DNA of 64,000 bases from a bacterium. Its GTDB lineage: Bacteria; Patescibacteriota; Microgenomatia; Levybacterales; UBA12049. Shown in pieces: positions 980 through 53,409 of this stretch (within the stretch, counting starts at the first letter, position 1; each line of letters starts with the position of its first letter). The stretch is taken from positions 3,515 through 67,514 of the forward strand of contig JAKALS010000001.1 of assembly GCA_021813145.1 (NCBI GenBank). The letters are read 5' to 3'. A program made the translations under genes and the position numbers. Under the pieces are notes generated by a model, which was given only the letters and a program-made list of their open reading frames with translations, searched no databases and was not told where the DNA came from.

Positions 980-1432
980 ATGACACCTGAAAGAAAAGCG
1001 CAATCGGACACACTGAGACAAGAAGATATTCTAAAATATTCTGCAGTTTATATAGAAAGATTGGTATCGAAAATAGAGCGTAGAACTCCACATTCGGCAA
1101 GCATCTTGAGAGGTCAAATTCAGTCGGGTTTTGGAGATTTTACTCTCGCAGAGTCAAATTTTATTATTGAAAGAACACAGACTAACGAAAAATCTTTCGT
1201 TTTGGTCTCTTTAACAAGGTTCCCTTTAGATACTGCTGACGGTGTAATAAGCGAAGGGATAAGGTTTAAAATCGCGAATCCAAAACTCACGGCTGATGAG
1301 GGTTTTATAGAGTATCATATTGCAAAAAAGGATAACCAAACTTTGGTTTCTGTAAATAAAAAGGAGACCTTAAAGTTAATAAGAAGTTTTATTGCCAATA
1401 TTCAGCAACATGAACCCCCTTTATCCGGATAA
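980..1432 (+). CDS. hypothetical protein
   Basis: 150-aa ORF in good coding context with no recognisable motif. Confidence 0.4.
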   Translation: MTPERKAQSDTLRQEDILKYSAVYIERLVSKIERRTPHSASILRGQIQSGFGDFTLAESNFIIERTQTNEKSFVLVSLTRFPLDTADGVISEGIRFKIANPKLTADEGFIEYHIAKKDNQTLVSVNKKETLKLIRSFIANIQQHEPPLSG

Positions 1433-1456
1433 AAATTCCTGCTATAATTTCTCCTT

Positions 1457-2206
1457 GTGGAACAAAGGGATATGAACGCAGAACTGATTGCGCAACAGGA
1501 AAAAGTAAATAAATATGTAGAGGTAAATAAAGTCGAAGCAAACAGCTTTGAAGGCGCTTGCGGAGACGGAAGGCCCGCGGCAGAAGGTACCGTAAGCGGA
1601 AGAGTGAGAAAATTCGGATCCGACATCGGTGACTTAATGGCAATCAAGGCGGCCTTAAATATAAAAGGAAAAGAAATTACCGCACATGACCTCGTTTTAA
1701 AATACTCAAAAGCAATAAAAGAAATAAGGGGAGAAGATTCGGTAATAGACTGGCATACCGACGAACACAGTTTATATGAAGGCGGAATAGGCTGCGGACA
1801 TGCGGCAAAGGCCGTAGCCGGTATTCAGGAAAATTTAAGACCCGAAGAGGTAAAAGCAATCTGGGATGAGGTAACGTCGGGAAATAACGAAAGAAGTGTT
1901 CTTAAGGGAGGACACGCCGAAGAGGCTGTTCTTTTAGTTCACGGGGATAAATTTTCGGTTAACTCGACAGACGGAACTAATATGTTTTTTGTCGTAGATG
2001 TGGACAGAGCCTTGGGATTTTTGGATAAGGTTGTGCCTCTTTTGGGAATAGAGGGGTTAAGCCCAGACGAGGTTAGAGCACAGTGGAATTTACAGATGCA
2101 AAAAACAGCCGGGGCTTTGGCAGCAGGGAAAAATATGTTTGATATTGACTTTGAAGAAAACGGAGACTTTAAAACCTCTTTTGCGGGAGCTGTTCCACAA
2201 AAATAG
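1457..2206 (+). CDS. hypothetical protein with conserved-looking Cys/His clusters (CGDGR, WHTDEH, GIGCGH)
   Basis: 249-aa ORF. Possible metal-binding motifs. Family not recognised. Confidence 0.45.
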   Translation: MEQRDMNAELIAQQEKVNKYVEVNKVEANSFEGACGDGRPAAEGTVSGRVRKFGSDIGDLMAIKAALNIKGKEITAHDLVLKYSKAIKEIRGEDSVIDWHTDEHSLYEGGIGCGHAAKAVAGIQENLRPEEVKAIWDEVTSGNNERSVLKGGHAEEAVLLVHGDKFSVNSTDGTNMFFVVDVDRALGFLDKVVPLLGIEGLSPDEVRAQWNLQMQKTAGALAAGKNMFDIDFEENGDFKTSFAGAVPQK

Positions 2207-2208
2207 TT

Positions 2209-2862
2209 TTATTTTGCAGACATAGTTCCGGAAGTGTTAAACGGAGCGGGTGTTTGATTCTGATTTACAAAGAATAGGCTTCCTGTACTCGTTTTTAATA
2301 CCGACTGGGCAACTCCCTGCGCCGTAACTGCTGTTTTTGGAAGGAAATCCAAAAGCGTACTTCCTGTTGCAGTTGGCGCTTCCGTAAATGTGATTGTTGC
2401 TATAGTTCCGTTCCCCGATACGCCTTTTTGTCCGAGAGGGACTCCCAAAGCCAGGGAAATTCTCCCGTTTTGCTGATCCACATTTTTAAGAAGCACAACG
2501 GGATTTTGTATAAAACTTCCGGGAGCAATCTGTACATTTAGAAGGACCTTAGGGTCAAATGATAACTCAAGCTGGGTAGCGGTAATCTTATCTGTTCCGC
2601 TTGAAATATTAACTTGTGTGGTATATGTGTTAAGACCTGTTTGTTTGGGGGCAGCTAATGTCAATTCGGTATGTGCATAGGGAGGAAAAAGAACTTTATT
2701 TGGAGTTGTCGTAGGCGAAGGGGGAACTATTTTTTGTGTATAAACGGCAAGTCCCAAAAGAACAAGAGTGACTGCGACGAGAAACGTTAAAAATACAACA
2801 GTTTGCTTTGGTAACCCTTTTTTTGCTGTTTGTGGAGTTGTCTGGACAGGTTTATTTTCCAT
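2209..2862 (-). CDS. membrane-anchored protein with a putative cohesin-like beta-sandwich domain
   Basis: N-terminal signal anchor (VVFLTFLVAVTLVLLGLAVY). C-terminal region LELSFDPKVLLNVQIAPGSF...GTIATITFTEAP resembles cohesin domain signatures. Sits directly upstream of two dockerin-bearing proteins. Confidence 0.4.
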   Translation of the reverse strand: MENKPVQTTPQTAKKGLPKQTVVFLTFLVAVTLVLLGLAVYTQKIVPPSPTTTPNKVLFPPYAHTELTLAAPKQTGLNTYTTQVNISSGTDKITATQLELSFDPKVLLNVQIAPGSFIQNPVVLLKNVDQQNGRISLALGVPLGQKGVSGNGTIATITFTEAPTATGSTLLDFLPKTAVTAQGVAQSVLKTSTGSLFFVNQNQTPAPFNTSGTMSAK

Positions 2863-2920: not shown

Positions 2921-5089
2921 CTAATCTCCGCTTTGTACGGAATACTCCCGTACAAAAAGATTATAGTCAAATTTATTTACAACCCCATTGTCATCAAGGT
3001 CAGAATTGATAATATAGCTCGGGTTACTGTTGCAGAGTTGGTGGTTATCTACATTGGCAACATCCGGGTCGTTAATGCAGCTTAAGAGAATATTATAGTC
3101 GGTTATATTTAAAACATTATCTCCGTTTACGTCTCCCGCAACAAGGTTAACCTGGGGCATCTGTGCGGTCTGTCCGGCAGCAATATTTTGTATTCCCGGA
3201 ATAAGCCTTCTTAAATGTCCGTCGGATTTTACTTTAATAGTATAATTTCCCGTTACAAAATTTCCTCCAAGGTCAACCGTTCCGGTAAATATACCTGTTC
3301 CCGCGTTGTAATTTATTGAGCCTAATTTATCTACCACCTGATTGTTATTACTGTCAAACACCCAAACCTCGACATTTCTGTTAGGATGAACAGGATTCTG
3401 ATTTGAAGAGCTCGGATTAGGATTTTCGTTGTCTCCTACAGATCCTATTGCATCCATTCCTACTTTAAGAGCCAGAAGTGTATCTCCCGGAGCAGGGGAA
3501 GCGGTAGGCGCCGGGCTTGAAGTAGGCGTAGGCGTTGGAACTTGGCAGGATCCGTTATAGCAGGCGACCCCGTTTGCGCAGGATGCATTGCATGACTGGT
3601 TATAAACATTTACCGGATTGCACTGGGAGCTGTTTACGTTATATGTGTTATAAACGCATGTCTCGGTTCCGCTTGCCGCTCCGCAGGCATTTACCTGGCT
3701 TGGCTGGCAAACCGCCTGGCTGCAATCCGCGATTCCGACTCCTTGAGAACTTCCATTACAATCCGGAGTGGGAGTCGGGCTGGGAGTGGGCGACGGACAG
3801 GTAGCCGCTGTAAATGTTCCCTGAGCGCTTTGTGCATTTGTTCCTAAAGTATAGACATACCATTGGAATTGGTGTCCTTGATTAAATCCGCACGAATATC
3901 CGGTTCCCGATTGGAGAGGGTCTGTGCATTGTGTAAAGTTATAGGTTGCTCCATTTGAGGGATTTTTAACGGTAGTGTCTCCTGCCTGTCTTGGAGAATA
4001 AAAACTGTTTGCCGTTCCGCTCCCATACTGGTAGGGCCCCCACCACTGATTTGCGGTTACATCATAGTATTTAATATAAACTCCGCTTCCGTCGGTAGGC
4101 CTTGTCCAAGTAAAGTATGTAGAGGACACATTGGCATCGTTTCCGGCTGTGTTTGCGGGATATCCTACTCCGCAATAAGTTTGCTGATTAAGGTTTGTTG
4201 CAACGGAATTGCTGGGAGAAGCAGTAGGGCTAGGAGACGGAGTTTGCCCAATAGGTGTGGATGTAGGAGCAGGAGTGCTTGCACAGGATGCTGTTGTAAA
4301 AGGCTGACCGTTTACCTGAACTCTTGCCCCGGATGTATTTACATATGTCATATACCAGGTCACTGTTTGTCCTTCTCTAAATCCGCAACTGTAGCCTGTT
4401 GTTAACCCCGAACATTGATTGAAATTAAATCCGTTATTTGTTGTCCCGGCTTTAAAAGGTGTTGTAATACTTGTTGACGAACCGGAAGTATAAGGACCAT
4501 AGGTATTATAGTCTGTAGTTATCTGATATTTGATTAAATATTGGGGATTAGAGGACGCGTCCGAAGGTTTCGTCCAGCTGAAAGTAGAAAATACAACACA
4601 TTGTCCGCCGCTTGTGCTACTCGAGCAGTTTCCGTTTGTGCAGTACTGCGCATAGCTTGTTCCGGTAGGGATCCCTTGAGGAGTAGTCGGATTGGGAGTC
4701 GGACTTGAAGGATTTATTACGGGTGTAGATACTGGTGTAGACACAGGCGTAGCGGTGGGGGCAGGTGTAGGTGTTTTATCTATATAGCACGAAACATCTC
4801 CCGCAGATCCTCCTACCGTTGCGGCACAATGGTAGTCAACAGGGCATTGATATTGATTATAAGCGGTTCCAGAACTGTTGCACTGTTGATAACCTCTCGG
4901 CAAACTGCCACCGCAAGTTTGGAAACCGGGCGTGCATGTAGAGGCATGTTGTTGGGTATTTTGCTGTTGTTGGGCTACCAAGACTGTTAGGGGGACAGCT
5001 GCTGCGATAATAAGAATGGCTAAAGCTGTAACCGTTCTTGTATGGCCAGGGGTCTTAAAAAACTCAACAAACCTTTTTAAAGGATTCAT
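2921..5089 (-). CDS. large secreted Cys-rich, Thr/Pro-linker protein with a C-terminal dockerin-like (type I) domain
   Basis: N-terminal signal anchor. Many Cys and PTPTPT linkers. C-terminus has DVNGDNVLNITDYNILL and DLDDNGVVNKFDYNLFV, i.e. duplicated DxNxDGxxxxxD calcium-binding loops. Confidence 0.6.
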   Translation of the reverse strand: MNPLKRFVEFFKTPGHTRTVTALAILIIAAAVPLTVLVAQQQQNTQQHASTCTPGFQTCGGSLPRGYQQCNSSGTAYNQYQCPVDYHCAATVGGSAGDVSCYIDKTPTPAPTATPVSTPVSTPVINPSSPTPNPTTPQGIPTGTSYAQYCTNGNCSSSTSGGQCVVFSTFSWTKPSDASSNPQYLIKYQITTDYNTYGPYTSGSSTSITTPFKAGTTNNGFNFNQCSGLTTGYSCGFREGQTVTWYMTYVNTSGARVQVNGQPFTTASCASTPAPTSTPIGQTPSPSPTASPSNSVATNLNQQTYCGVGYPANTAGNDANVSSTYFTWTRPTDGSGVYIKYYDVTANQWWGPYQYGSGTANSFYSPRQAGDTTVKNPSNGATYNFTQCTDPLQSGTGYSCGFNQGHQFQWYVYTLGTNAQSAQGTFTAATCPSPTPSPTPTPDCNGSSQGVGIADCSQAVCQPSQVNACGAASGTETCVYNTYNVNSSQCNPVNVYNQSCNASCANGVACYNGSCQVPTPTPTSSPAPTASPAPGDTLLALKVGMDAIGSVGDNENPNPSSSNQNPVHPNRNVEVWVFDSNNNQVVDKLGSINYNAGTGIFTGTVDLGGNFVTGNYTIKVKSDGHLRRLIPGIQNIAAGQTAQMPQVNLVAGDVNGDNVLNITDYNILLSCINDPDVANVDNHQLCNSNPSYIINSDLDDNGVVNKFDYNLFVREYSVQSGD

Positions 5090-5132
5090 TACTTTTAGAA
5101 TAGTTTAAGAGGCAGCTATTTGTCAATATAAA

Positions 5133-7181
5133 CTAATTGCCGTTTTGGACAGAGTATTCTCTTAGGAAGAGGTTATAGTCATATCTGTCTACGACTCCGT
5201 TGTCATCCAAATCGGATTGAATTATATAATTCGGGTTGCTGTTGCAAAGCTGGTGATTATCTACATTGGCAATTGTCGGGTCGCTTATGCAGCTTAATAA
5301 TATATTGTAGTCGTTTATATTTATGGCATTATTATTGTCGATATCTCCTGCAACAAGGTTAACCCTTGGCATATTGTTTGTTTGTCCCCCCGTTATATTT
5401 TGTATTCCGGGTATAAGCCTTCTTAAGTGTCCGTCGGATTTTACTTTAACAGTATAAATATCTGTCGGGATTAATCCGACATCAACGCTTCCCGTAAATA
5501 TTCCAGTTCCAGCATTATAATTTATGGAACCCATTTTATCGGCTATAAGATTATTATTTTTGTCGTACATCCAGACCTCTACATTTCTTTGGGGATGTTT
5601 CGGATTTTGATTGGAAGAACTCGGGTTGGGATTTTGATGATCACCTGTTGAGCCGATTGCATCTATGCCTATATTAAGGGCAAGCAATGTGTCCGCAGGA
5701 GCAGGGGTTGCCGTTGTGGTAGGCGCAGGTGAAGAACTGCCCGTAGGATTTGGGGTTGCGGTATTGGTTGGCTTAGGTGAAGCCGTTGCCTGTGCTATGC
5801 AGGTATTGCTTGAACAGATTGTTCCCAAAGCACATGAAGGTTGACACGTAACAATGGCGTGGATCGGGTTGCAGTTTGTGCTTCCGTTATAAGTAGTATA
5901 TGTACAAGTCTTGGAACCGCTTGTAGGTCCGCAAGCATCCAACGGAGTTGCAGCGCATGTGGTGCAGTTAGTAAGAGTTGTATTACAGACCGGCAAAGGT
6001 GTAGCGGTCGGCACGGGCGTAGGAGAGACTACTCCGCAACTGCTTTGGCATTGCACCAATGAAAGATTACCTGAATTTGTTCTAACACAAGCTCCGCTGA
6101 CACAGGCATAACCTGCGGAGGTCGGAAGTGGAGTTCCACCAGAACATGTCCCCAGACAATCGCTTAATGAAAGATTACCTGAATTTGTTCTAACACAAGC
6201 TCCGCTGACACAGGCGTAGCCGGCAGAGGTAGGGATAGGTGTGGGCGCAGGTGTTGCTATATCCTTGCAGCAAACGGTTCCGGCACCGCAGGTGTATCCC
6301 GAAACAGGTTGTAAACCGTTTCCTGAAAAACAGATACTGCTCGAAATGCACGAATACGGGCAATTGGAGGTTGGCGTAGGCGCCGGAGTAACTAAATCTT
6401 TGCAGCAAACGGTTCCGGCACCGCAGGTGTATCCCGAAACAGGGGAAAGACCGTTTGCAGAACTGCAAATTGTTGTGGAAATGCAGGAATACGGGCAATT
6501 GGGGGTAGGATTGACTGTCGGTTTGGGTGTAGGGGTAGCAGTCGGTTTAGGTGTTGCTCCGCAGGACCCTCCGCAATAACTTAAGGGAACCGAAATATGT
6601 GGACCGTTCGTGCAGGTTGCTGGTGTTCCTCTGCATCCGTATGAATATTCTTCGCAGTTTGTTGTACTTGTGCAAACATAGGTTGCGTTTCCCCCGCAGG
6701 ATGCATTTGTCGTTCCTGTTCCGGAAGTGCAGGTAGAGGTCGTATTGCAAACTCCAAACGAAGCTCCGCATGATGTCCCCGAGGGACAGGTCCATCTTTG
6801 AGATGTCAGACAGCCCGTTGCATTAGCAGTACAACTTGTATGATACAGTCCGCCGTACAAACTTGTAGAACTGGTTTTGGAGCATCCAGTGCATCCGTTA
6901 GCGCTGCATTGGCTACTAAGTTGTGAAAGGCAATAAGAGGACGCTTGCGAGGAAGTATCTGAAGTTCCGGATGCAGAAAAAGTCATGCTTATGGAGTGGG
7001 ATTGAACGGAACAATCGATCGAAGTTCCCGAAGCGTGCTGTTGCGTATTTTGCCTTTGCTGGGCGACTAAAACTGTAAGGGGAACTGCTGCTGCGATGAT
7101 AAGAATTACAAGTGCGGAAACGGTTCTTGTATGGCTTGGAATAGAAATAAATTCACGGAACCTTTTTAACGGGTTTTCCAT
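5133..7181 (-). CDS. paralogous secreted Cys-rich protein with a C-terminal dockerin-like domain and internal tandem modules
   Basis: N-terminal about 50 aa and C-terminal about 180 aa are nearly identical to 2921-5089 (GDIDNNNAININDYNILL and DLDDNGVVDRYDYNLF loops). Middle contains 2 x 36-aa and 2 x ~47-aa Cys-rich repeats. Confidence 0.6.
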   Translation of the reverse strand: MENPLKRFREFISIPSHTRTVSALVILIIAAAVPLTVLVAQQRQNTQQHASGTSIDCSVQSHSISMTFSASGTSDTSSQASSYCLSQLSSQCSANGCTGCSKTSSTSLYGGLYHTSCTANATGCLTSQRWTCPSGTSCGASFGVCNTTSTCTSGTGTTNASCGGNATYVCTSTTNCEEYSYGCRGTPATCTNGPHISVPLSYCGGSCGATPKPTATPTPKPTVNPTPNCPYSCISTTICSSANGLSPVSGYTCGAGTVCCKDLVTPAPTPTSNCPYSCISSSICFSGNGLQPVSGYTCGAGTVCCKDIATPAPTPIPTSAGYACVSGACVRTNSGNLSLSDCLGTCSGGTPLPTSAGYACVSGACVRTNSGNLSLVQCQSSCGVVSPTPVPTATPLPVCNTTLTNCTTCAATPLDACGPTSGSKTCTYTTYNGSTNCNPIHAIVTCQPSCALGTICSSNTCIAQATASPKPTNTATPNPTGSSSPAPTTTATPAPADTLLALNIGIDAIGSTGDHQNPNPSSSNQNPKHPQRNVEVWMYDKNNNLIADKMGSINYNAGTGIFTGSVDVGLIPTDIYTVKVKSDGHLRRLIPGIQNITGGQTNNMPRVNLVAGDIDNNNAININDYNILLSCISDPTIANVDNHQLCNSNPNYIIQSDLDDNGVVDRYDYNLFLREYSVQNGN
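6050..6240. repeat. in-frame tandem coding repeat, 2 x 108 nt (36-aa Cys-rich module AGYACVSGACVRTNSGNLSL...)
   Basis: aatgaaagattacctgaatttgttctaacacaagctccgctgacacaggc occurs at about 6058 and again at about 6166. Period is 108 nt. Confidence 0.7.
6240..6530. repeat. in-frame tandem coding repeat, 2 x ~144 nt (NCPYSCIS...GYTCGAGTVCCKD module)
   Basis: ttgcagcaaacggttccggcaccgcaggtgtatcccgaaacagg occurs at about 6265 and again at about 6409. Confidence 0.65.
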
Positions 7182-23916: not shown

Positions 23917-24121
23917 GACTTTATGGTAAAGAATGGACTGATTAAAGTCAACAGCTTTGATGGTAGACGATGGAGAATGTAAGCTAGAGCTTGAAGTTGG
24001 ATAAGTTGAAGCGATTAAAACCTTTCGTGGTTTAAAGGTCTGATTCAGCCCTCATCTTCTATCCTCAAGATCCAGCTTCCAGCATCTACTGTTCGCCAGC
24101 AGATAATGTATACTGTTTTTA

Positions 24122-25942: not shown

Positions 25943-26154
25943 ATTTTTTGAAGTGGGAAGTGAGATGTTCTTGAACTTGAACTAGGTACATGATCCGCAG
26001 CAGTTAGAGCAGGACCAGTTGCAATTGGCAATCCCGCAGCAGGAGGTAGCGCAAGCAATTAATCTTCCCTGGTTTAATTTATTAGGGGTGTAGAAAAGAT
26101 TAATCTTAAATCTCTTTTTTTGAATATCAGGTTTTTGATATTTGTTGTATTTTT

Positions 26155-26670
26155 TCATTGCTGCAAAATAAAAATATTTATGTCCAATGGTGCTTCATTT
26201 GGATCTATGGCGAGGTTCTCATTAAATTGGACCATTATTTTATCTCCGGGTTTTAAATCGCTTACTCCCACCTTTGAAGTTGTTCCATTTTTATCTTGAA
26301 GGTATACTGAGGTAGTTAATAAGTTTTTCCCCGTAATTGGGATGTTTGTCATATCTGCTTTATCGCCCTCCAGCACTATTAGTACTCCTTTATTGTCTTT
26401 TGACGGAATTATATTTTTTACTATTCCGTTAACATTTTGGGTAAAATATACATTTGCATTTTTATAAGACGGCCAGCTTTCAAGCATTTTTAGGGCAATA
26501 GGGTTAATTGCTAGGTTTGCTATGGGTATAGGGGTAGAGGTTGATGTCCCGATCGGGACCTGAGCTATTTTTTTAGGTTCTTCAAAAACAAAAAGAAATA
26601 CAACTTCCGAAAAAGCCGTAATAAGAAGAGCAATTATTATGGCAAGGAACACCTTGTTGAGCCTGGACAC
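26155..26670 (-). CDS. membrane-anchored protein, paralog B of the pair that flanks the RiPP operon
   Basis: MSRLNKVFLAIIIALLITAFSEVVFLFVF is nearly identical in pattern to the N-terminus of 30523-31044. Pro/Thr linker. Confidence 0.5.
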   Translation of the reverse strand: MSRLNKVFLAIIIALLITAFSEVVFLFVFEEPKKIAQVPIGTSTSTPIPIANLAINPIALKMLESWPSYKNANVYFTQNVNGIVKNIIPSKDNKGVLIVLEGDKADMTNIPITGKNLLTTSVYLQDKNGTTSKVGVSDLKPGDKIMVQFNENLAIDPNEAPLDINIFILQQ

Positions 26671-26722
26671 TTTAAATCACCTGATTATAGTAGAACACTT
26701 TGCTTAAGCGATGTCAATAGCA

Positions 26723-27487
26723 CTATTTCAAGGGGTTGCCAAAGGAAAAAGTGCTAATTACTGTTTCCTCAGTCCCGTCTACATCAAGTAATTTGTTTAG
26801 TGTGTCTTCTTTAAAACCCGCTACCTCGCAACACCCAAGATTTAGGGGAATGGAATTTAGGTAAAAATTTTGGCCGAGATGGCCTGTATCGATAAAAACA
26901 TGTCTATAACCGCGTTCTCCGTATTTAACCGTAGTTCTTGCGAAAACTCCGGTAACAATAATTATAAAAGCCGACCCTTTAACCCATTCTTGGTCAAAAT
27001 ATTTTCTGAAGTTTATCGTTTTATACGCGTAAATATGCTCAAGACTGTGAGTTCTTGGGTAATAATGATAAATTCCGTTAGGAAGTTCGGTATTAAAAGA
27101 TAAAAGGTAAATTTCAAGAGGGTATCTTCCTCCTCCCGAAGGATAAAATCTAAGAGGATACAAATTTTCATCAAGATTTTTTATTCCTGCGCTATGGTAC
27201 AGGAGAGAGGAAATTCTTTTAAGGTCAACCTTTTCTTTAGTGAATTCCCTTATGGACTCTCTTTTTAGAAGCGCTTTGGATAAGGCAACTTTAGGAAGTT
27301 CAATTTTGGGAAGCTTAATCTGTTCAAAACGGAAATAGCTTTTAAAATAAACTTTTTTCCACGTTTCGGGAGGTTTTTTTAAATCTTTTCTGAAGCGGAC
27401 ATTTTTTGATGCTTCGTAAAATTTTTGAAAAGGTGAGTTGTTGATGTTTAATAACTCCTCAATCTCGTTGTTATTTTTTATTTTCAT
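26723..27487 (-). CDS. SagB-type (McbC-like) FMN-dependent dehydrogenase of azoline-to-azole RiPP pathways
   Basis: RFYPSGGGRYPLEIY resembles the SagB hallmark PSAGGLYP. GYRHVFIDTGHLGQNFYL and CEVAGF are nitroreductase-fold segments. Confidence 0.65.
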   Translation of the reverse strand: MKIKNNNEIEELLNINNSPFQKFYEASKNVRFRKDLKKPPETWKKVYFKSYFRFEQIKLPKIELPKVALSKALLKRESIREFTKEKVDLKRISSLLYHSAGIKNLDENLYPLRFYPSGGGRYPLEIYLLSFNTELPNGIYHYYPRTHSLEHIYAYKTINFRKYFDQEWVKGSAFIIIVTGVFARTTVKYGERGYRHVFIDTGHLGQNFYLNSIPLNLGCCEVAGFKEDTLNKLLDVDGTEETVISTFSFGNPLK

Positions 27488-28767
27488 ATAAAAGGATGCG
27501 GAACTTGATTAAAATTCCCGGTTTCCACGTTAAAGAAATCCGCCACTTCTTTTATTCTTCCCGTCTTTAATTCTTTCTCTTTCTCATTCAAATAGAGAGG
27601 TTGAAGACGGGGAATAATGATTTTGAATACTTTATAGTCAATATCGGTAAAGTTATCTAAAGTTATGTCGGAATAATATGCATCCAGATTATTTTTCTTT
27701 AAAATTTTTTTCACTGTTTCCAGTTCTTTTACAGGGTTGTCTATGGGGGGTAGGGTTTTATATATCTTCGATTTTTCCGATTTTGTGAGAAAATCTAATT
27801 TGTCTTCCATTTGGGGCGTCATCCATAAAAGTGCCCTTTCAGCAATAGTTGGAACATGTTTTCTTATTTTTACATTTTTCTTTTTGTCAAATAGCTGCAA
27901 TTTCGCAAAGTATCTATTCATGAATGCCTCTTCCATGGCTCCCAGAATCGCAGTTTTTGTATCTAGGCTCGCTTTCATTCCCAGTGAAAGTTGGGGAAGA
28001 TTACCCGTTTCATCTAACAAAACGGTTAAGAATACAGGCACTTGAAGATTATTGGTAATATTAAAGATCAGGGGTTTTAGTCTGTATCTCTTGTAATAAT
28101 CGCCTAGGGATTTTATAGCGCTATCCTTAATGGAACTTATTTTTATCTTGGGGACCCTTATTTTATTAAGATATACCGTCATGAATGCATCTCTTTCTAT
28201 GACCTCATAAATTCCATTAAGAATAACTCTTGTGCTATCAAATCCTCCAGCTGCACCCGTACTTATACTTGAAGTCAGAGAAACTTCATTATCTTTTGGA
28301 AAGTTTAGATATAAAAGCTGGGCAGGAAGAAGTACCTGTTTATTGTCAAATAAATCGTGTCCCTTTATCCATCCGAACTTTGTTTCTTTTATTTTGTCCG
28401 TGTTTATATAAATTTGAGGATTTAAAGCATTAATTCTTTTCTTTTTCAGTTCATTATAGGTAGTATATGTAATCGATTTATAGCTATAGCAGCATTGGTT
28501 AAATCTTTCTGCAGCCTCGCTAAGACACTTCAATAGGGCGGTTTCTTTTGATGCATAAGATAATCCGTTTGCCCCGATTTTATATGCGTTGAGCTTATAT
28601 TCAGATTTCGGAAAAAAGGGATTACTTGAGTTATTAAGCATAACCGAATAGTAATTTAGCTTAGGTTCGTCATAAAAGTGGTTAGAGTTATTTGCTACTT
28701 TCTTAATAATTTTTTTTCCGTTAAGTTCTTTATAGAGTATTTTGATTAATTCCAAGTTATTTTCCAT
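27484..28767 (-). CDS. YcaO-domain cyclodehydratase (azoline-forming type)
   Basis: CLSEAAERFN and GIYEVIERDAF match the YcaO ATP/Mg-binding E-x-x-E-R motifs. SISTGAAGGFD. C-terminal ...VPHPFI is a proline-rich tail like the PxPxP of TOMM YcaOs. Confidence 0.7.
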   Translation of the reverse strand: MENNLELIKILYKELNGKKIIKKVANNSNHFYDEPKLNYYSVMLNNSSNPFFPKSEYKLNAYKIGANGLSYASKETALLKCLSEAAERFNQCCYSYKSITYTTYNELKKKRINALNPQIYINTDKIKETKFGWIKGHDLFDNKQVLLPAQLLYLNFPKDNEVSLTSSISTGAAGGFDSTRVILNGIYEVIERDAFMTVYLNKIRVPKIKISSIKDSAIKSLGDYYKRYRLKPLIFNITNNLQVPVFLTVLLDETGNLPQLSLGMKASLDTKTAILGAMEEAFMNRYFAKLQLFDKKKNVKIRKHVPTIAERALLWMTPQMEDKLDFLTKSEKSKIYKTLPPIDNPVKELETVKKILKKNNLDAYYSDITLDNFTDIDYKVFKIIIPRLQPLYLNEKEKELKTGRIKEVADFFNVETGNFNQVPHPFI

Positions 28768-29483
28768 TATTTTATGTAGTAAAAATTATCAAAATTTTTA
28801 ACAAATTCCATTAAATATTTTATTTGGCTGTTGTAGTTTTTAGAGTCTCCGCTGATTTTTTTCGCAAGGTTTTCGAGGATTTGTTCTTTATCTTCAATTT
28901 TACCTTCGGAAATATTTTTACTTTTTAAGGGGATATAGATATTTCCGATTGGGAATTTCCCGTGGTTTTTTTCAATAAAGGGATTTTCGATAAAAGGTGA
29001 TTGGTAAAAATAATATCTACCGTTTTCCTTTTTTATAATCGATATGTCATCGGTTAAAAATTTATTATGTATATTTTCTATGTCCTTAAAGAAGATTTCT
29101 GCTTTACCGTTTTTTTCTATTGCTATTGATTTTAGGAATAGCGTTTCATGTTTGAGAGATAATTTAAAGAGTATAAAATTAATTACCGTTTGGAATTGAA
29201 GAGGGTTTATGGAGTAGTAGGCGTTCATGCTATTTACTCCGGTTTCTTCAAAAAAACCCAAATAATATTTTTTACCTTTTCCATTGTAAAGTAAGTCCAT
29301 TCTCTTTTTTTCTATAAAATTTATCGTGTAGTCCGGTTTGTTGTTTGGATTTTTTATGATAAATCCTTTAAAAAAATCAATAATTTCATTTTTAATAGTA
29401 TCTCTTACAAAAGGCTTTTCGCTTTTGTTAAAAACTGTTTTAATATTAAATCCGCCGATTTTAAGAGTTAGTGAATTATTCAT
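28767..29483 (-). CDS. HPr-kinase-like family protein lacking a Walker A motif (paralog of 29489-30286)
   Basis: Collinear with 29489-30286 and 48517-49332 (shared NFILF/NFVLL region and C-terminal QIKYLMEF..FDNFY). No GxxGxGKST P-loop. Confidence 0.5.
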   Translation of the reverse strand: MNNSLTLKIGGFNIKTVFNKSEKPFVRDTIKNEIIDFFKGFIIKNPNNKPDYTINFIEKKRMDLLYNGKGKKYYLGFFEETGVNSMNAYYSINPLQFQTVINFILFKLSLKHETLFLKSIAIEKNGKAEIFFKDIENIHNKFLTDDISIIKKENGRYYFYQSPFIENPFIEKNHGKFPIGNIYIPLKSKNISEGKIEDKEQILENLAKKISGDSKNYNSQIKYLMEFVKNFDNFYYIK

Positions 29484-29488
29484 ATTCC

Positions 29489-30286
29489 CTAAAGAGTATT
29501 TTCCAATAATTTTATAAGGCCCTTGCTGCTTTTTGAGAAATAGAGAAAATAAAAGTTATCGAATTCGCTTATAAACTCCATAAGATATTTTATTTGAGTA
29601 GAGTAGTGCTCGTCTCTTGTAAAGATTTGTTTTGATATTAATTTTAGAACATACTCCTTGTTTGTGATTTTTTTGATTTCAAAATGCTTAGATTTTTTTA
29701 AAAAATACACTGAATTTACGGTTGTCCCACTGGAGGTCTTGGTGATCAGGTTTTTTTCCAGGATAGGCGATTGATACAAGTTATATTTGCTTGCCTCTTT
29801 TCTAATTAATGTTATGTCATCGGATAATTTGAAATACCTGTTTTTTAAAAGGTTTGCTGTTGTTGACTTTCCCGCTCCGCTTTTGCCAAGAAAAATATAT
29901 GCCTTGTTATTAATCTTTACTGCGGAAGAATGCAAAAACAAAATTTTATTTTTTTCACTTAATCTTAAAAGTACAAAATTTACCAGCGATTGAAATTGAA
30001 AAATATTTATAAGGTAATGGGTTTTGATTCTATTTTTTTTTATTATTTCGAAAAAAGCCAGATAATATTTCGATTTATTTTTTTCGCTTAATAACTCAAG
30101 TTTTTCTTCTTCCGTTATTTCGATAATAAAGTCGGGGCTTTTAGGTTTATTCTCTATAAAGTTAGCAAAGAAATCTTCAATATTATTTTTTAAAATTTTT
30201 TTTGCAACATTTAATTCAGTCTTTTTAAATATAATCTTTATGGAAAATCCGCCCACTAAAATATTTATAATTTCGGTATTTTTCAT
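29489..30286 (-). CDS. HPr kinase/phosphorylase C-terminal-domain-like putative peptide kinase
   Basis: FLGKSGAGKSTTANLLKNRYFKLSDD matches the HprK P-loop region [25 protein letters not shown]. Confidence 0.55.
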   Translation of the reverse strand: MKNTEIINILVGGFSIKIIFKKTELNVAKKILKNNIEDFFANFIENKPKSPDFIIEITEEEKLELLSEKNKSKYYLAFFEIIKKNRIKTHYLINIFQFQSLVNFVLLRLSEKNKILFLHSSAVKINNKAYIFLGKSGAGKSTTANLLKNRYFKLSDDITLIRKEASKYNLYQSPILEKNLITKTSSGTTVNSVYFLKKSKHFEIKKITNKEYVLKLISKQIFTRDEHYSTQIKYLMEFISEFDNFYFLYFSKSSKGLIKLLENTL

Positions 30287-30335
30287 TTTGGATATTGTAC
30301 CAAATTTATTTTTAATTAAAAGAAGGGGAGAAGGC

Positions 30336-30512
30336 TTATGTTGCTTTTATAGAGCTGCTTCCGCAACCGCAAGAACTCGCTGCATATACTTTTCCTACTG
30401 CTAGTCCATTAGCAGAATCTAGAAAACGTTTATTAAAAAAGAACATAGAAAAACCTTTTACGGTTCTCCTTCTTATCTTAGGCTTAATATAACGATTTTC
30501 AACGGTCTTCAT
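30336..30512 (-). CDS. candidate RiPP precursor peptide, 58 aa (not in the supplied ORF track)
   Basis: Minus-strand ATG at 30512 translates to MKTVENRYIKPKIRRRTVKGFSMFFFNKRFLDSANGLAVGKVYAASSCGCGSSSIKAT, with stop at 30336-30338. The Cys/Ser/Gly-rich C-terminal core is typical of azoline-type substrates. Sits immediately upstream of the HprK-like/YcaO/SagB genes on the same strand. An alternative start is the second Met (36-aa product). Confidence 0.5.
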   Translation of the reverse strand: MKTVENRYIKPKIRRRTVKGFSMFFFNKRFLDSANGLAVGKVYAASSCGCGSSSIKAT

Positions 30513-30522
30513 AATAGCTATT

Positions 30523-31044
30523 TTACTTTAAAAATCTTTGTATTTCTACGCTATCCGGCATTTTGCCATCGGATGTGTGCATATCGTAAGTAGCAGTTAT
30601 TATAATACTATTTCCGGATGAAAGATCACTAAGTTTTATGGGTGTTTGAACTCCGTTTGTCAGATCATAAACTTTTACGCTTTGAGAAAGCGGGGGCATA
30701 ATGTCATATTGAGTAACTTCTTTTCCTTTTACTCCCTCTAGATGAATTGTGAGTACATTATTGTTTGCCTGGGTAGGAAGATCTACCGAAGAGACTATGC
30801 CTGTTACATTTTGAGTAAAGGTGTAAGTTGAGTTGGTCCAATAGTGGGCAGTTTTTAGGTAATCTATCATGTAATTCGTTACGGCAGGGTTTTGAATAGG
30901 GGTAGGTGTAGGAGCTGTTAAGGCCTGAGGGGGAGTGGGAACAGTCTGGGTGGGTTTATAAACAAACAGAAATACCACCTCTGCAAGAGCAGTAAAAAGA
31001 AGAGCTATAATCACAGCTAAAAATATTTTATTCAGCTTTGACAT
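30523..31044 (-). CDS. membrane-anchored protein, paralog A of the pair that flanks the RiPP operon
   Basis: MSKLNKIFLAVIIALLFTALAEVVFLFVY. Pro/Thr linker. 10 nt upstream of the precursor ORF. Confidence 0.5.
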   Translation of the reverse strand: MSKLNKIFLAVIIALLFTALAEVVFLFVYKPTQTVPTPPQALTAPTPTPIQNPAVTNYMIDYLKTAHYWTNSTYTFTQNVTGIVSSVDLPTQANNNVLTIHLEGVKGKEVTQYDIMPPLSQSVKVYDLTNGVQTPIKLSDLSSGNSIIITATYDMHTSDGKMPDSVEIQRFLK

Positions 31045-49332: not shown

Positions 49333-49589
49333 AATACAAAGTAAATAAAGGTTTTATAATTCAAAAAGTAGGGGATAGTTCGACGATTTTTGACGGGGAA
49401 AAATCGGAACTTTATACTTTTAATAAAACTGCTACCTTGATTTTTGAAAAAATAAAGTCAGGCTGGGAAAGCGCAAAAATAATTGAATATCTTTCAAAAT
49501 TTTATTCGATTAAAAAAGAAGAGGCGGAAAAAGATTTTAACGAATTTGTATCCGAACTTATAAAATCAAAGATTCTTTCTAAAAAATAA
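49329..49589 (+). CDS. PqqD-family RiPP recognition element (RRE) protein
   Basis: 86 aa. FNKTATLIFEKIKSGWESAKIIEYLSKFYSIKKEEAEKDFNEFVSELIKSKIL follows the PqqD pattern LNETAAxIxELxDG..t..eIi..L...y.v..e....Dv..fl..L...gli. ATGA-coupled to the upstream kinase-like gene. Confidence 0.65.
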   Translation: MKYKVNKGFIIQKVGDSSTIFDGEKSELYTFNKTATLIFEKIKSGWESAKIIEYLSKFYSIKKEEAEKDFNEFVSELIKSKILSKK

Positions 49590-50801
49590 TTTCTCCCGGA
49601 TTTTCTTTTCAACAACCCAATATACGGAATAGACGACTTCTTTATTTGTAAATACAAAAGCCTTTCTGTAAAAAGGGAGAGGGGAGAGGAAAAAAATTGT
49701 CTTGAACCTTTTTACGCCTCCCGTTACTCTTTCGTCCTGGTTAAGTATGTCTATTCCCCTAATCATTTTATTCATATATCCGTTTTTTTCCGGCTTAATT
49801 TTGTTTAAAACGGAAGAGGGAACGGGAGTCTTGTAATACTTTTTAAGAAGAAAAAGAGCGGGGTAAATAAAATTTTCAAGTTTATATTCTTTTATGATCC
49901 TTAGAGCGTTTTCTCCGATTTTATCTTTTTTAATTACGGTGTTTATAAATTCATAACGGTAAGTTCCTTCAAAATTATGGTGAAAAAGGTGAAGGCAAAG
50001 GTAAACGGCAAGATTATCTTTTGAAAGAACGGGAAAATTCTCTCCGTTTACCGTTATTTGTCTTTTGCTATTTAAAAAGTCCGAAGTAAGAGAGTCTACG
50101 AGTTTTTGCGGATAAAGGCTATTCAACTCGCCAAGCTGTGTCATTAAAAAAACAATTTCGAAATGTACGTCAAAAACCACGGCAAATCCGTTTACGTATT
50201 TTATAAAAGTTATTTCCGATTCCTTGTTTTTTAACTGCTTATGCTTTTTGGAAAGGCTGTCTTCGGTTTGCTCATATCCGAATTCTTTTAAAATCCTTTT
50301 AACTTTATTAAAATCGTTTCTTTTAACAAGTATGTCGCAGTCGGCGTAAATTCTCCTGGGGTGGGTCTTTTCGAAATATAAATGAAGGGGAAGGCCCTTT
50401 AGAAAAACAACGTCTATGCCTTTTTTCTCCAGGATTTTTTTAATTTTTATTATTTCCAAAAAATAGAGGCTGGACTGCATAAGATAGAGACTTTCGGGGC
50501 TGAATATTTCTTTACCCCTTTTAACATTTTCCACAATCCCGAGTATGTTTTTTGCCGAAACTCTTTTATCGGAAGTATGGTTGTTATCGCCTTTGGTTAT
50601 AACATAGTCTTTGCCTTTATAAATTACTCTGTGGGTAAAATAAGTATTGCCGTTTTTTACCGTTATTATGTCGTTGGTTTTAATTCTTTTAAAGGGGATT
50701 TTTTTAAGGTATAAAATATCCCCGTCCAAAAGAAGGGGATACATGCTGTTGCCGAAAGTCTTAAGCCCTCTTTTTAAGAAATCTCTATTATTTATATCCA
50801 T
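49566..50801 (-). CDS. fusion protein: N-terminal S24/S26 (signal-peptidase-I / LexA-like) serine peptidase domain plus C-terminal uncharacterised nucleotidyltransferase (NTP_transf_5-like) domain
   Basis: GNSMYPLLLDGDIL (Ser box), FTHRVIYKGKDYVITKGDNNHTSDKR (Lys/GDN boxes). VVFLKGLPLHLYF...RRIYADCDILV in the C-terminal domain. Confidence 0.5.
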   Translation of the reverse strand: MDINNRDFLKRGLKTFGNSMYPLLLDGDILYLKKIPFKRIKTNDIITVKNGNTYFTHRVIYKGKDYVITKGDNNHTSDKRVSAKNILGIVENVKRGKEIFSPESLYLMQSSLYFLEIIKIKKILEKKGIDVVFLKGLPLHLYFEKTHPRRIYADCDILVKRNDFNKVKRILKEFGYEQTEDSLSKKHKQLKNKESEITFIKYVNGFAVVFDVHFEIVFLMTQLGELNSLYPQKLVDSLTSDFLNSKRQITVNGENFPVLSKDNLAVYLCLHLFHHNFEGTYRYEFINTVIKKDKIGENALRIIKEYKLENFIYPALFLLKKYYKTPVPSSVLNKIKPEKNGYMNKMIRGIDILNQDERVTGGVKRFKTIFFLSPLPFYRKAFVFTNKEVVYSVYWVVEKKIREKLFFRKNL

Positions 50802-52674: not shown

Positions 52675-53409
52675 TTATTTTCTTCTTCTTGAGGTTTTTT
52701 TACTGTTGCTCCACAAAAGCGCCAAAAGCAGCATTGCTACAATTATTAAGAAAATCAGCGCAAAGACCTTTTGTGTATATAAAGAAGGTCCCGATGATGT
52801 TGTTTTTGCGGGAACATAGGTTCCCGGAGTGGGAGGAGTAAGCGAAGAATCATTTTTGGCAATAATTTTATTTATTCCGACCATAAAAGCACTGTCCTGA
52901 ATCGGGATTTGAGTGTTTAAAAGAATATGTCCCGTAAAGCTTTTTGAATTCGCAACGTCGATATTTCCCACGGAACCCATGGGATAGAAGTATGTGTTTG
53001 TCCCAACATAGTTGTTGTAAACCTGGGCAGAAATTTGATTAGAAGGTGTAACTACTTTCCCCTTTGAATTTATAAAGACCAGGTAGTACGAGGCAATAGG
53101 AGACTGGTCTTTTGGGAGAATTGTCTTAAGTTTGTCCCAGTTTCCTTCGAACACATATACGTTTACATTATCGTTAAAGCTTTGAGGCGGAACGGTAATT
53201 GTTGTAAACGGAAAAAGATTTATTGTTTTAGGCGAAGTTTCCCCGTACTGTATAAAGCTTGTGGCAACGGGTTTTGTCATGTCAAAAAGAGGATTATTCG
53301 GAATGGTTGCGGGAGGAGTCTGTGCAAAGGAAGTTTTTCCCAAAAGCAGGAAGGCAAGTATGAGAGGTAAAACTACAAGCAATTTTATTTTTTTCATGCT
53401 CTTATTCAA
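52675..53409 (-). CDS. hypothetical secreted protein with a C-terminal transmembrane anchor and basic tail
   Basis: Signal peptide KIKLLVVLPLILAFLLLG. C-terminal VFALIFLIIVAMLLLALLW followed by SNSKKTSRRRK. Confidence 0.45.
   Translation of the reverse strand: MNKSMKKIKLLVVLPLILAFLLLGKTSFAQTPPATIPNNPLFDMTKPVATSFIQYGETSPKTINLFPFTTITVPPQSFNDNVNVYVFEGNWDKLKTILPKDQSPIASYYLVFINSKGKVVTPSNQISAQVYNNYVGTNTYFYPMGSVGNIDVANSKSFTGHILLNTQIPIQDSAFMVGINKIIAKNDSSLTPPTPGTYVPAKTTSSGPSLYTQKVFALIFLIIVAMLLLALLWSNSKKTSRRRK

Follow-up and report, generated by a model that had tools for sequence, protein, structure and literature searches.

A 64,000-nucleotide (nt) stretch of contig JAKALS010000001.1 (positions 3,515 to 67,514 of the forward strand; GenBank assembly GCA_021813145.1, order Levybacterales of the Microgenomatia), referred to below as the window, carries a gene whose 411-amino-acid (aa) product combines an S26B-type peptidase domain with a nucleotidyltransferase (NTase) domain of the NTP_transf_5 family. 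This fusion is a two-domain enzyme conserved in bacteria of the Candidate Phyla Radiation (CPR; Microgenomates group), and its gene is tightly and recurrently linked to genes for a PqqD-family protein, an HprK-related protein of the ScmC family, a phosphoglycosyl transferase (Bac_transf), an ATP-binding cassette (ABC) exporter and a set of precursor peptides that form one family. Judged by their conserved residues, both halves of the protein appear to be catalytically intact. On balance, we lean towards the view that the fusion is a bifunctional enzyme for peptides that are ribosomally synthesised and then modified post-translationally (RiPPs), in which the peptidase domain would remove the leader and the NTase domain would make a modification similar to that attributed to PsmN of the pseudomycoidin cluster.

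Extent and authenticity of the fusion family

The gene is a single reading frame without interruption, and a search of the window found no second copy elsewhere in it. A preliminary description, made from the sequence alone, had proposed that a peptidase and an NTase are genuinely fused here, and had named as the alternative that the two are separate genes in relatives and were joined artificially. The fusion proved to be real, with three domain models matching above their curated cut-offs (Peptidase_S24, TIGR02228 and NTP_transf_5), and it is the rule among relatives. A word-indexed search returned 429 relatives, the best 120 of which are ~390–465 aa long and cover 93–99% of the query. An exhaustive search of 50%-identity representatives gave 2752 matches with E values below 1e-3 and 213 below 1e-30; almost all of the best 150 representatives were of full length, and the 213 clusters were nearly all 385–455 aa long. 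Full-length open reading frames (ORFs) were present in hundreds of independent assemblies (NCBI, JGI, ENA, Logan), and the identical protein was found on seven independent contigs. All sources that name an organism point to CPR bacteria (Roizmanbacteria, Microgenomates, Patescibacteria group, Levyibacteriota), and a contig scan with the single protein identified three loci, with a Candidatus Levyibacteriota metagenome-assembled genome as the closest named one.

In favour of an assembly or gene-calling artefact joining two genes there are only a few ~300-aa database entries which cover the NTase part alone. One of them (P0209) is cut by the end of its contig and was discarded as evidence of a split gene; another (P0205, from related locus L091) is a genuine NTase-only relative, with an upstream gene devoid of an S26 domain. 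Against the artefact stand the hundreds of full-length ORFs, the seven contigs with the identical protein and the quality of the structural model, and we regard this explanation as refuted and give it practically no credence. The model, predicted with AlphaFold2 (AF2) from an alignment of 64 family members (also the source of the conservation figures and of the profile-to-PDB search given below), had a mean predicted local distance difference test (pLDDT) score of 95.6 and a predicted template modelling (pTM) score of 0.93. Structure prediction, which the preliminary description had suggested as a check, thus placed both domains confidently in one body, and this very high confidence implies that they have a fixed mutual arrangement in the predicted protein.

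Approximately one fifth of the relatives in databases are annotated as starting from the Met that immediately follows the catalytic Ser (Met20 codon, positions 50742–50744 of the window), and thereby lose the nucleophile. These are start-codon miscalls, because in the DNA of related loci the G-x-S-M box is present upstream of the annotated Met20 starts, and they probably contribute to most of the entries without a precomputed Peptidase_S24 match. Currently, such proteins are annotated either as ‘signal peptidase I’ or as ‘nucleotidyltransferase family protein’, so that half of the protein goes unnamed either way. A literature search that covered few subscription journals found no description of the fusion or the associated peptide system, and only the work on PsmN from lasso peptides proved relevant.

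Catalytic class of the peptidase domain

The preliminary description had assigned the N-terminal part to S24/S26 peptidases on the basis of Ser, Lys and GDN boxes, and had proposed searches with domain models. When these were run, Pfam Peptidase_S24 matched residues 13–90 with an E value of 1.5e-5 (25.1 bits against a cut-off of 23.3), and the NCBIfam model of archaeal/endoplasmic reticulum (ER)-type signal peptidase I, TIGR02228, matched with 53.0 bits (cut-off 51.85), as opposed to just 26.9 bits for the bacterial-type model TIGR02227. Human SEC11C was the sole match of the single protein among PDB sequences. With the profile of the 64-member family, SEC11C (E = 8.8e-7) and SEC11A (E = 4.1e-6) were both recovered, with the Ser, His and GDNN..D boxes lining up: GNS19M falls on SGSM, TH57RV on VHRV, and TKGD72NNHTSD78 on TKGDNNxxDD (TKGDNNAVDD). 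Structural comparison of the N-terminal part against the PDB using Foldseek matched SEC11A/C, SipA and LexA.

We propose from these alignments a catalytic triad of Ser19 (GNSMYP), His57 (THRV) and Asp78 (GDNNHTSD), together with Asp72. Each of the four residues is at least 90% conserved among the 64 relatives, while conservation is no more than moderate at K62 and absent at K64. Enzymes of the S26B subfamily (SEC11, SipW and the archaeal enzymes) use Ser-His(-Asp), whereas LepB and LexA use a Ser-Lys dyad. Since TIGR02228 scores above its cut-off and His occupies the position of the general base in the SEC11 alignments, the domain is reclassified as S26B (ER/archaeal) type, with His57 rather than Lys as the probable base. 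The Ser and GDN boxes originally described are therefore retained and align to SEC11, and the Lys box is replaced by His57 of THRV. A motif check at the DNA level in the 82 loci that cover the N-terminus found the catalytic residues of both domains to be kept; among the peptidase motifs, apparent exceptions at Ser and His were mostly pattern-matching or contig-end artefacts, and those at the GDNN box were mostly conservative variants. One locus, L056, carries two copies of the fusion gene (1256–2455, minus strand, and 4032–5288, plus strand), and in one of them Thr stands where the nucleophilic Ser would be (GENTMRP).

The N-terminal domain has the fold of SEC11A/SEC11C, SipW and archaeal signal peptidase I (MEROPS S26B), and their SM, HR and GDNN...D boxes as well. 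The fusion differs from them in having neither a transmembrane (TM) anchor nor partner subunits, in its predicted cytoplasmic location, and in consisting of a ~100-aa domain fused to an NTase; the candidate substrates (see below) are neither Sec signal peptides nor equipped with a hydrophobic h-region, yet their putative cleavage junction shares the small residue at −1 and the aliphatic residue at −3. The absence of a membrane anchor had been noted before and holds true. The highest 19-residue Kyte-Doolittle (KD) hydropathy mean in the fusion protein is 1.55, compared to 2.7–2.9 in true TM proteins encoded nearby, and only 16 residues precede the G-N-S box. No hydrophobic N-terminal extension was seen in any of 203 relatives, in which a median of 19 residues lies ahead of the G-x-S-M box. 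In sequence and catalytic boxes the domain is thus S26B-like, yet it lacks the anchor and topology that define a signal peptidase, and a membrane signal peptidase was rejected for this lack of an anchor. A LexA-type self-cleaving S24 regulator was also dismissed, given the His in the Lys position and the lack of an internal cleavage-site region (~16 residues upstream of the Ser box).

The nucleotidyltransferase domain

The C-terminal part had likewise been described as an NTase, and this was borne out: Pfam NTP_transf_5 (PF14907) matched residues 109–323 with an E value of 1.2e-26 (94.2 bits against a cut-off of 31.2) over model positions 52–248 of 249. The signature reads LKG136 ... D154-C-D156 ... 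D211-V-H213; G136 and D156 are invariant among the 64 relatives, and K135, D154, D211 and H213 each reach 90% conservation or more. The G...DxD...D signature of nucleotidyltransferases of the Pol-beta fold is recognised in the retained G136, D154, D156 and D211, and by these sequence features the domain is a bona fide member of NTP_transf_5. Foldseek matched the C-terminal part to LnuA, ANT(2'')-Ia, MenT1 and TM1012 in the PDB, and there was a weak Pfam match to Aminoglyc_resit (E = 0.049).

Gene neighbourhood and related loci

Features of the window and of related loci are listed in Table 1. The gene for the PqqD-family protein lies convergent to the fusion gene, with whose 3' end it shares 24 nt; its product shows sub-threshold similarity to lasso-type PqqD models. 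It is the last gene in a run in the order Bac_transf, ScmC and PqqD. The ScmC-family protein, which like its orthologues carries the precomputed Pfam match PF27840, is a putative peptide kinase. On the other side, the gene for the ABC exporter is divergent from the fusion gene. The exporter has no N-terminal C39 peptidase domain, and bacteriocin ABC models align to it only from model position ~150 onward. Further along, a 244-aa protein without a family match (52675–53409, minus strand) begins with a signal-like segment and ends in a TM/basic anchor; the protein that occupies this position in locus L001 has a match to Cohesin (PF00963).

Proteins of the window were used to score the ORFs of 89 related loci that we collected, and context counts were taken from the 34 non-redundant loci flanked by 8 kb or more of sequence. 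PqqD was present in 27 of the 34, ScmC in 26, a precursor in 23, Bac_transf in 19, YcaO or SagB in 12 and the ABC exporter in 8. A convergent PqqD gene lies within 1.5 kb downstream of the fusion gene in 31 of 49 related loci. Overlaps of a few to ~30 nt between the Bac_transf and PqqD genes are frequent, suggesting that a lipid-carrier enzyme and a peptide-binding protein are translationally coupled in these loci. No protease other than the fusion recurs among the neighbours in the related loci.

A low-GC island occupies positions 24000–52700 of the window (GC content of 0.28–0.36, compared to ~0.37–0.47 in the flanks) and is rich in surface-glycan genes (Wzy_C, carbamoyltransferase, PMT_2, GDSL esterase, glycosyltransferases GT2/GT4, DegT and Bac_transf). 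Two peptide-maturation blocks flank these glycan genes on both sides, one around the fusion gene and the other described below. Glycan surroundings are alike in loci L001 and L006, and in L003 Bac_transf and a carbamoyltransferase are close by.

Precursor peptides and the junction motif

No precursor was found among the small ORFs adjoining the fusion gene (48.3–53.7 kb). Tracing the YcaO/SagB association of related loci back into the window led to a second gene block on the minus strand (positions 25982–31044), which encodes a YcaO cyclodehydratase, a SagB-type dehydrogenase, two ScmC paralogues and two 58-aa precursor peptides with Cys/Ser-rich tails. One of the ScmC paralogues, encoded between the intact one and YcaO, has lost its P-loop and may be a non-catalytic partner subunit. 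Each precursor gene has directly upstream of it a gene for one of two paralogous single-pass membrane proteins, with KD maxima of 2.7–2.8 at their N-termini; homologues of these adjoin precursors in related loci.

A leader hidden Markov model (HMM) seeded on the two window ORFs recovered 35 distinct precursors in related loci. They share a basic leader (M-K-K..Y.K-P-K-I..K-K-I-K.N-F-F...) which ends in hydrophobic-hydrophobic-Ala/Ser right before the core. This junction motif occurs within 12 residues before the first Cys in all 31 Cys-containing precursors, compared to 4.6 expected when each leader is shuffled. Ala stands at position −1 in 30 of 33 cases, and residue −3 is Leu, Val, Ile or Phe; as the search pattern fixed the residue sets allowed, it is the distribution inside these sets and the shuffle control that are informative. 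The leaders differ from Sec signal peptides and contain no hydrophobic h-region. Precursor genes lie at a median distance of ~0.7 kb from the fusion gene, and in six loci they are on the same strand and directly upstream of it.

Several variants depart from the Cys-rich type. Some precursors lack Cys and have only 4–6 residues past the junction (TFKS, SIAR, KRISPV, AKQNM, QLITAK), and in L091, the source of the last two, three precursors stand in tandem beside a radical S-adenosylmethionine (SAM) enzyme, a PqqD-QueC fusion and the S26-less NTase relative. In other precursors the same leader and junction are followed by 4–6 residues and then a Hint/intein-like domain (PT-HINT, Intein_splicing), an architecture that points to the release or transfer of a very short peptide by way of a thioester. 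In yet others a Cys-rich core is followed by a Peptidase_S74 domain (E = 1e-17 in L083, 765–1283, and 3.5e-15 in L025, 16385–16903, minus strand). Peptidase_S74 is the self-cleaving intramolecular chaperone of phage tailspikes, and by this domain match these precursors carry a built-in C-terminal ‘follower’ protease.

Table 1 Features of the fusion gene, its neighbours, the YcaO/SagB block and selected related loci (window coordinates unless a locus is given)
Feature	Position	Strand	Basis
Fusion gene, 411 aa, S26B-type peptidase domain + NTP_transf_5 domain	49566..50801	-	ORF, Pfam, NCBIfam, AF2
Peptidase domain, aa 13-100	50502..50765	-	SEC11C/SEC11A alignments, conservation in 64 relatives, Foldseek
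Linker helix + nucleotidyltransferase domain + helical C-terminal region, aa 102-411	49569..50498	-	NTP_transf_5 match, conservation, Foldseek
PqqD-family protein (RiPP recognition element), 86 aa	49329..49589	+	Pfam PqqD E 2.1e-8
ScmC-family HprK-related P-loop protein (GRNGAGKST), 271 aa	48517..49332	+	Weak HprK/ScmC matches; precomputed Pfam PF27840 ScmC
Small monotopic phosphoglycosyl transferase (Bac_transf), 200 aa	47911..48513	+	Pfam Bac_transf E 8.7e-54
ABC exporter (permease + ATPase), 606 aa	50853..52673	+	ABC_tran E 1.9e-32
Precursor peptide 1, 58 aa: ...NKLNQGRLIA / CATSCCGIANCNWSCSNCCGSCT	25982..26158	-	ORF; leader HMM E 3.2e-12
Single-pass membrane protein paralogue, 171 aa, upstream of precursor 1	26155-26670	-	ORF; KD
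SagB-type dehydrogenase	26723-27487	-	Pfam Nitroreductase 6e-21; TIGR03605 146 bits vs 78.4
YcaO cyclodehydratase	27484-28767	-	Pfam YcaO E 3.9e-46
ScmC paralogue, 238 aa, P-loop lost (GKSGAGKST -> KDIENIHNK)	28767-29483	-	tblastn; HprK/ScmC matches
ScmC paralogue, intact P-loop (GKSGAGKST)	29489-30286	-	tblastn; HprK/ScmC matches
Precursor peptide 2, 58 aa: ...RFLDSANGLAVGKVYA / ASSCGCGSSSIKAT	30336..30512	-	ORF; leader HMM E 2.1e-12; junction motif
173-aa single-pass membrane protein, gene directly upstream of precursor 2	30523..31044	-	ORF; KD
Bac_transf/PqqD gene overlaps	L006 8183-9050; L040 1367-2226; L087 8437-9317		ORFs
Short-core precursors	L013 9789-9917; L079 1778-1930; L047 2235-2390; L091 1125-1587		
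Hint-domain precursors	L034 4843-5400; L006 3459-4037; L075 1421-1981(-)		

Proposed maturation pathway

The preliminary description had likened the NTase to a family from RiPP-like neighbourhoods and had suggested coupled leader cleavage and modification. The neighbourhood agrees with this, since it holds PqqD, an HprK-like protein, homologous precursors and an exporter without its own peptidase domain, and these same neighbours make coupled cleavage and modification the most economical reading of the fusion. What does not survive is the Ser/Lys chemistry of the LexA/LepB type, which gives way to a proposed S26B Ser-His-Asp site.

In the pathway that we put forward, PqqD would bind the conserved basic leader and present the precursor. 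The core would then be tailored, with azoles introduced by YcaO/SagB where it is Cys-rich, and ScmC would phosphorylate a Ser or Thr of the core. The NTase domain could subsequently modify that phosphate or a hydroxyl, as PsmN does on the phospho-Ser of pseudomycoidin. Cleavage by the S26 domain would follow the hydrophobic-hydrophobic-Ala/Ser junction, a cut that fits the −3/−1 rule of signal peptidases in that the residue at −1 is small and that at −3 aliphatic. Finally, the ABC transporter would export the product. The precedent for the modification step is the lasso cluster of pseudomycoidin, in which PsmN, an ‘uncharacterized NTP transferase’, is needed for the addition of hexose to the phospho-Ser that PsmK, a kinase of the HprK type, produces, and in which the D134A/D136A (DxD) mutant of PsmN is inactive (PMC6993621).

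A number of points weigh against this pathway. The PsmN reaction has not been reconstituted in vitro (PMC11912497). Both the peptidase and the NTase activity of the fusion family, and with them its function, are deduced from sequence, and the link between the junction motif and the S26 domain is likewise one that we infer. In the window, 19 kb of sequence with glycan genes separates the fusion gene from the nearest precursor. The S26-less relative P0205 of L091 adjoins precursors that keep the hydrophobic-hydrophobic-Ala junction, so the motif may serve another purpose. Precursors with cores of 4–6 residues and those with Hint or S74 domains are not predicted by a scheme in which the leader is removed and the core exported. 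S26B enzymes normally act at the membrane surface on signal peptides with an h-region. Lastly, Bac_transf, a phosphoglycosyl transferase that acts on polyprenyl phosphate, is a frequent neighbour, yet the ordinary RiPP scheme has no role for it.

Alternative explanations

The frequency of Bac_transf and the glycan surroundings raise the question of whether the peptides are conjugated to the cell envelope. ScmC, the NTase domain and Bac_transf could act in series like a sugar kinase, a nucleoside diphosphate (NDP)-sugar pyrophosphorylase and a phosphoglycosyl transferase, with the S26 domain still removing the leader; a phospho-peptide would be converted to an NDP-peptide and passed on to polyprenyl phosphate, or joined to the glycan specified by the surrounding genes. 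Consistent with this, Bac_transf occurs in 19 of the 34 loci, often translationally coupled to PqqD, the peptide genes bracket the low-GC glycan island in the window with similar surroundings in L001, L006 and partly L003, and the Hint-domain precursors imply a thioester-mediated transfer of short peptides. The authors of the PsmN study also left open that the enzyme possibly makes an activated intermediate for host glycosyltransferases (PMC6993621). However, the series of reactions is a purely logical analogy, Bac_transf is missing from ~45% of the loci, and the presence of glycan and RiPP genes in one variable island may have unrelated causes. A lipid-linked peptide of such kind is not known, and we consider envelope conjugation unlikely. 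A more explicit version of it, to which we attach slightly less weight still, has a core Ser/Thr phosphorylated, an NDP-peptide made by the NTase, a lipid-diphosphate-peptide produced by Bac_transf, and its attachment to the CPR cell surface by Wzy/ligase-type and glycan genes. This line, drawn by analogy with the series from sugar-1-phosphate through NDP-sugar to Und-PP-sugar, is kept alive by the 19-kb gap with its glycan island, by Bac_transf, by the short cores, by the Hint/S74 variants and by L091; were it true, it would represent a new route to conjugates of peptides with glycans or lipids, and the PsmN family would gain a chemistry.

The bifunctional RiPP enzyme that we favour could also be wrong in one of its halves. 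If the S26 domain were not the leader peptidase, it might be a SipA-like peptide-binding or chaperone module, or cut elsewhere (e.g. at a C-terminal follower), with the leader removed by another protease. SipA, a non-catalytic signal-peptidase homologue acting as a pilus chaperone, is among the fold matches, the S26-less relative of L091 keeps precursors with the junction motif, and one paralogue of L056 has Thr for the nucleophilic Ser. Conservation of Ser19, His57, Asp72 and Asp78 at 90% or above is unexpected for a non-catalytic module, though, and the loci offer no recurrent alternative protease; we rate this explanation as improbable, about on a par with envelope conjugation. It is even harder to credit that the NTase half modifies a small molecule (an antibiotic or toxin), or confers self-resistance, in the manner of LnuA, ANT(2'') or MenT, and that the fusion is unrelated to the peptides nearby. 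LnuA, ANT(2'')-Ia and MenT1 are indeed its best matches among solved structures, and the weak Aminoglyc_resit match points the same way, but identity to these three proteins is just 10–18%, the family specifically matched is NTP_transf_5 (E 1e-26), and the recurrent linkage to PqqD, ScmC and precursors argues for a peptide substrate.

Comparison with known systems

Among characterised systems, the PsmN/PsmK pair of pseudomycoidin likewise includes an uncharacterised NTase family with an essential DxD, encoded beside HprK-like, PqqD-type and ABC exporter genes (PMC6993621). Within its lasso cluster PsmN is a separate protein, whereas the NTase described here is joined to an S26 domain and is accompanied by no lasso cyclase or B2 protease; the likeness is one of description and not of alignment. 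A lasso cluster was rejected after neither an Asn-synthetase-like macrolactam synthetase (C) nor a transglutaminase-type B2 was found among the Pfam-annotated neighbours in the window and in L001–L006. The split lasso leader peptidase B1/B2 follows the same logic in that a small PqqD protein is encoded beside the protease that removes the leader. That protease is a Cys enzyme of transglutaminase type, as opposed to the proposed Ser-His-Asp S26B site of the fusion, and the macrolactam synthetase of lasso systems has no counterpart here.

In gene content the window locus overlaps in part with clusters for thiazole/oxazole-modified microcins (TOMMs) and other linear azole peptides (microcin B17, streptolysin S, plantazolicin), having YcaO, SagB and Cys/Ser/Thr-rich cores in common with them (window and 12 of 34 loci). 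Unlike in TOMM clusters, no E1-like or Ocin-ThiF-like partner was found in the YcaO/SagB block; the adjacent ORFs are the ScmC paralogues, which stand there instead together with a free-standing PqqD. TOMM leaders are removed by TldD/E or a CaaX-type protease, whereas the S26 domain is proposed for this step here, and YcaO/SagB are optional in the CPR system.

Physical coupling of a protease to another step of RiPP maturation is known from the peptidase-containing ABC transporters (PCAT/LanT, C39 family). In these the protease is joined to the exporter, and in the fusion a domain of a different catalytic class is joined to a tailoring enzyme. The SynChlorMet and HPr-rel-A systems (TIGR04248/04249, TIGR04352–04355) likewise combine a ScmC-type protein related to HprK with a small protein related to PqqD. 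However, the window scores 15–28 bits against cut-offs of 35–200 and has no adjacent ScmE/F radical-SAM genes; with scores so far below the cut-offs, membership in these equivalogs was rejected.

Implications

We know of no RiPP pathway in which an S26-type catalytic domain serves as the dedicated cytoplasmic leader peptidase, and none was found in the literature, the search having covered few subscription journals. If the proposed role is true, the domain would add to the RiPP toolbox a protease class with a simple junction defined by Ala at −1. To our knowledge, the NTP_transf_5/PsmN family is still without a defined reaction, and several hundred fusion proteins with co-encoded substrates provide a second, independent system in which it could be solved.

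CPR bacteria are usually thought to be poor in secondary metabolism. The loci collected here point to a widespread and apparently undescribed peptide system across genomes of the Microgenomates group, modular in its products, with Cys-rich azole-type cores, cores of 4–6 residues and cores with Hint or S74 tails. This system often lies inside surface-glycan islands, and it may bear on how CPR episymbionts interact with their hosts.

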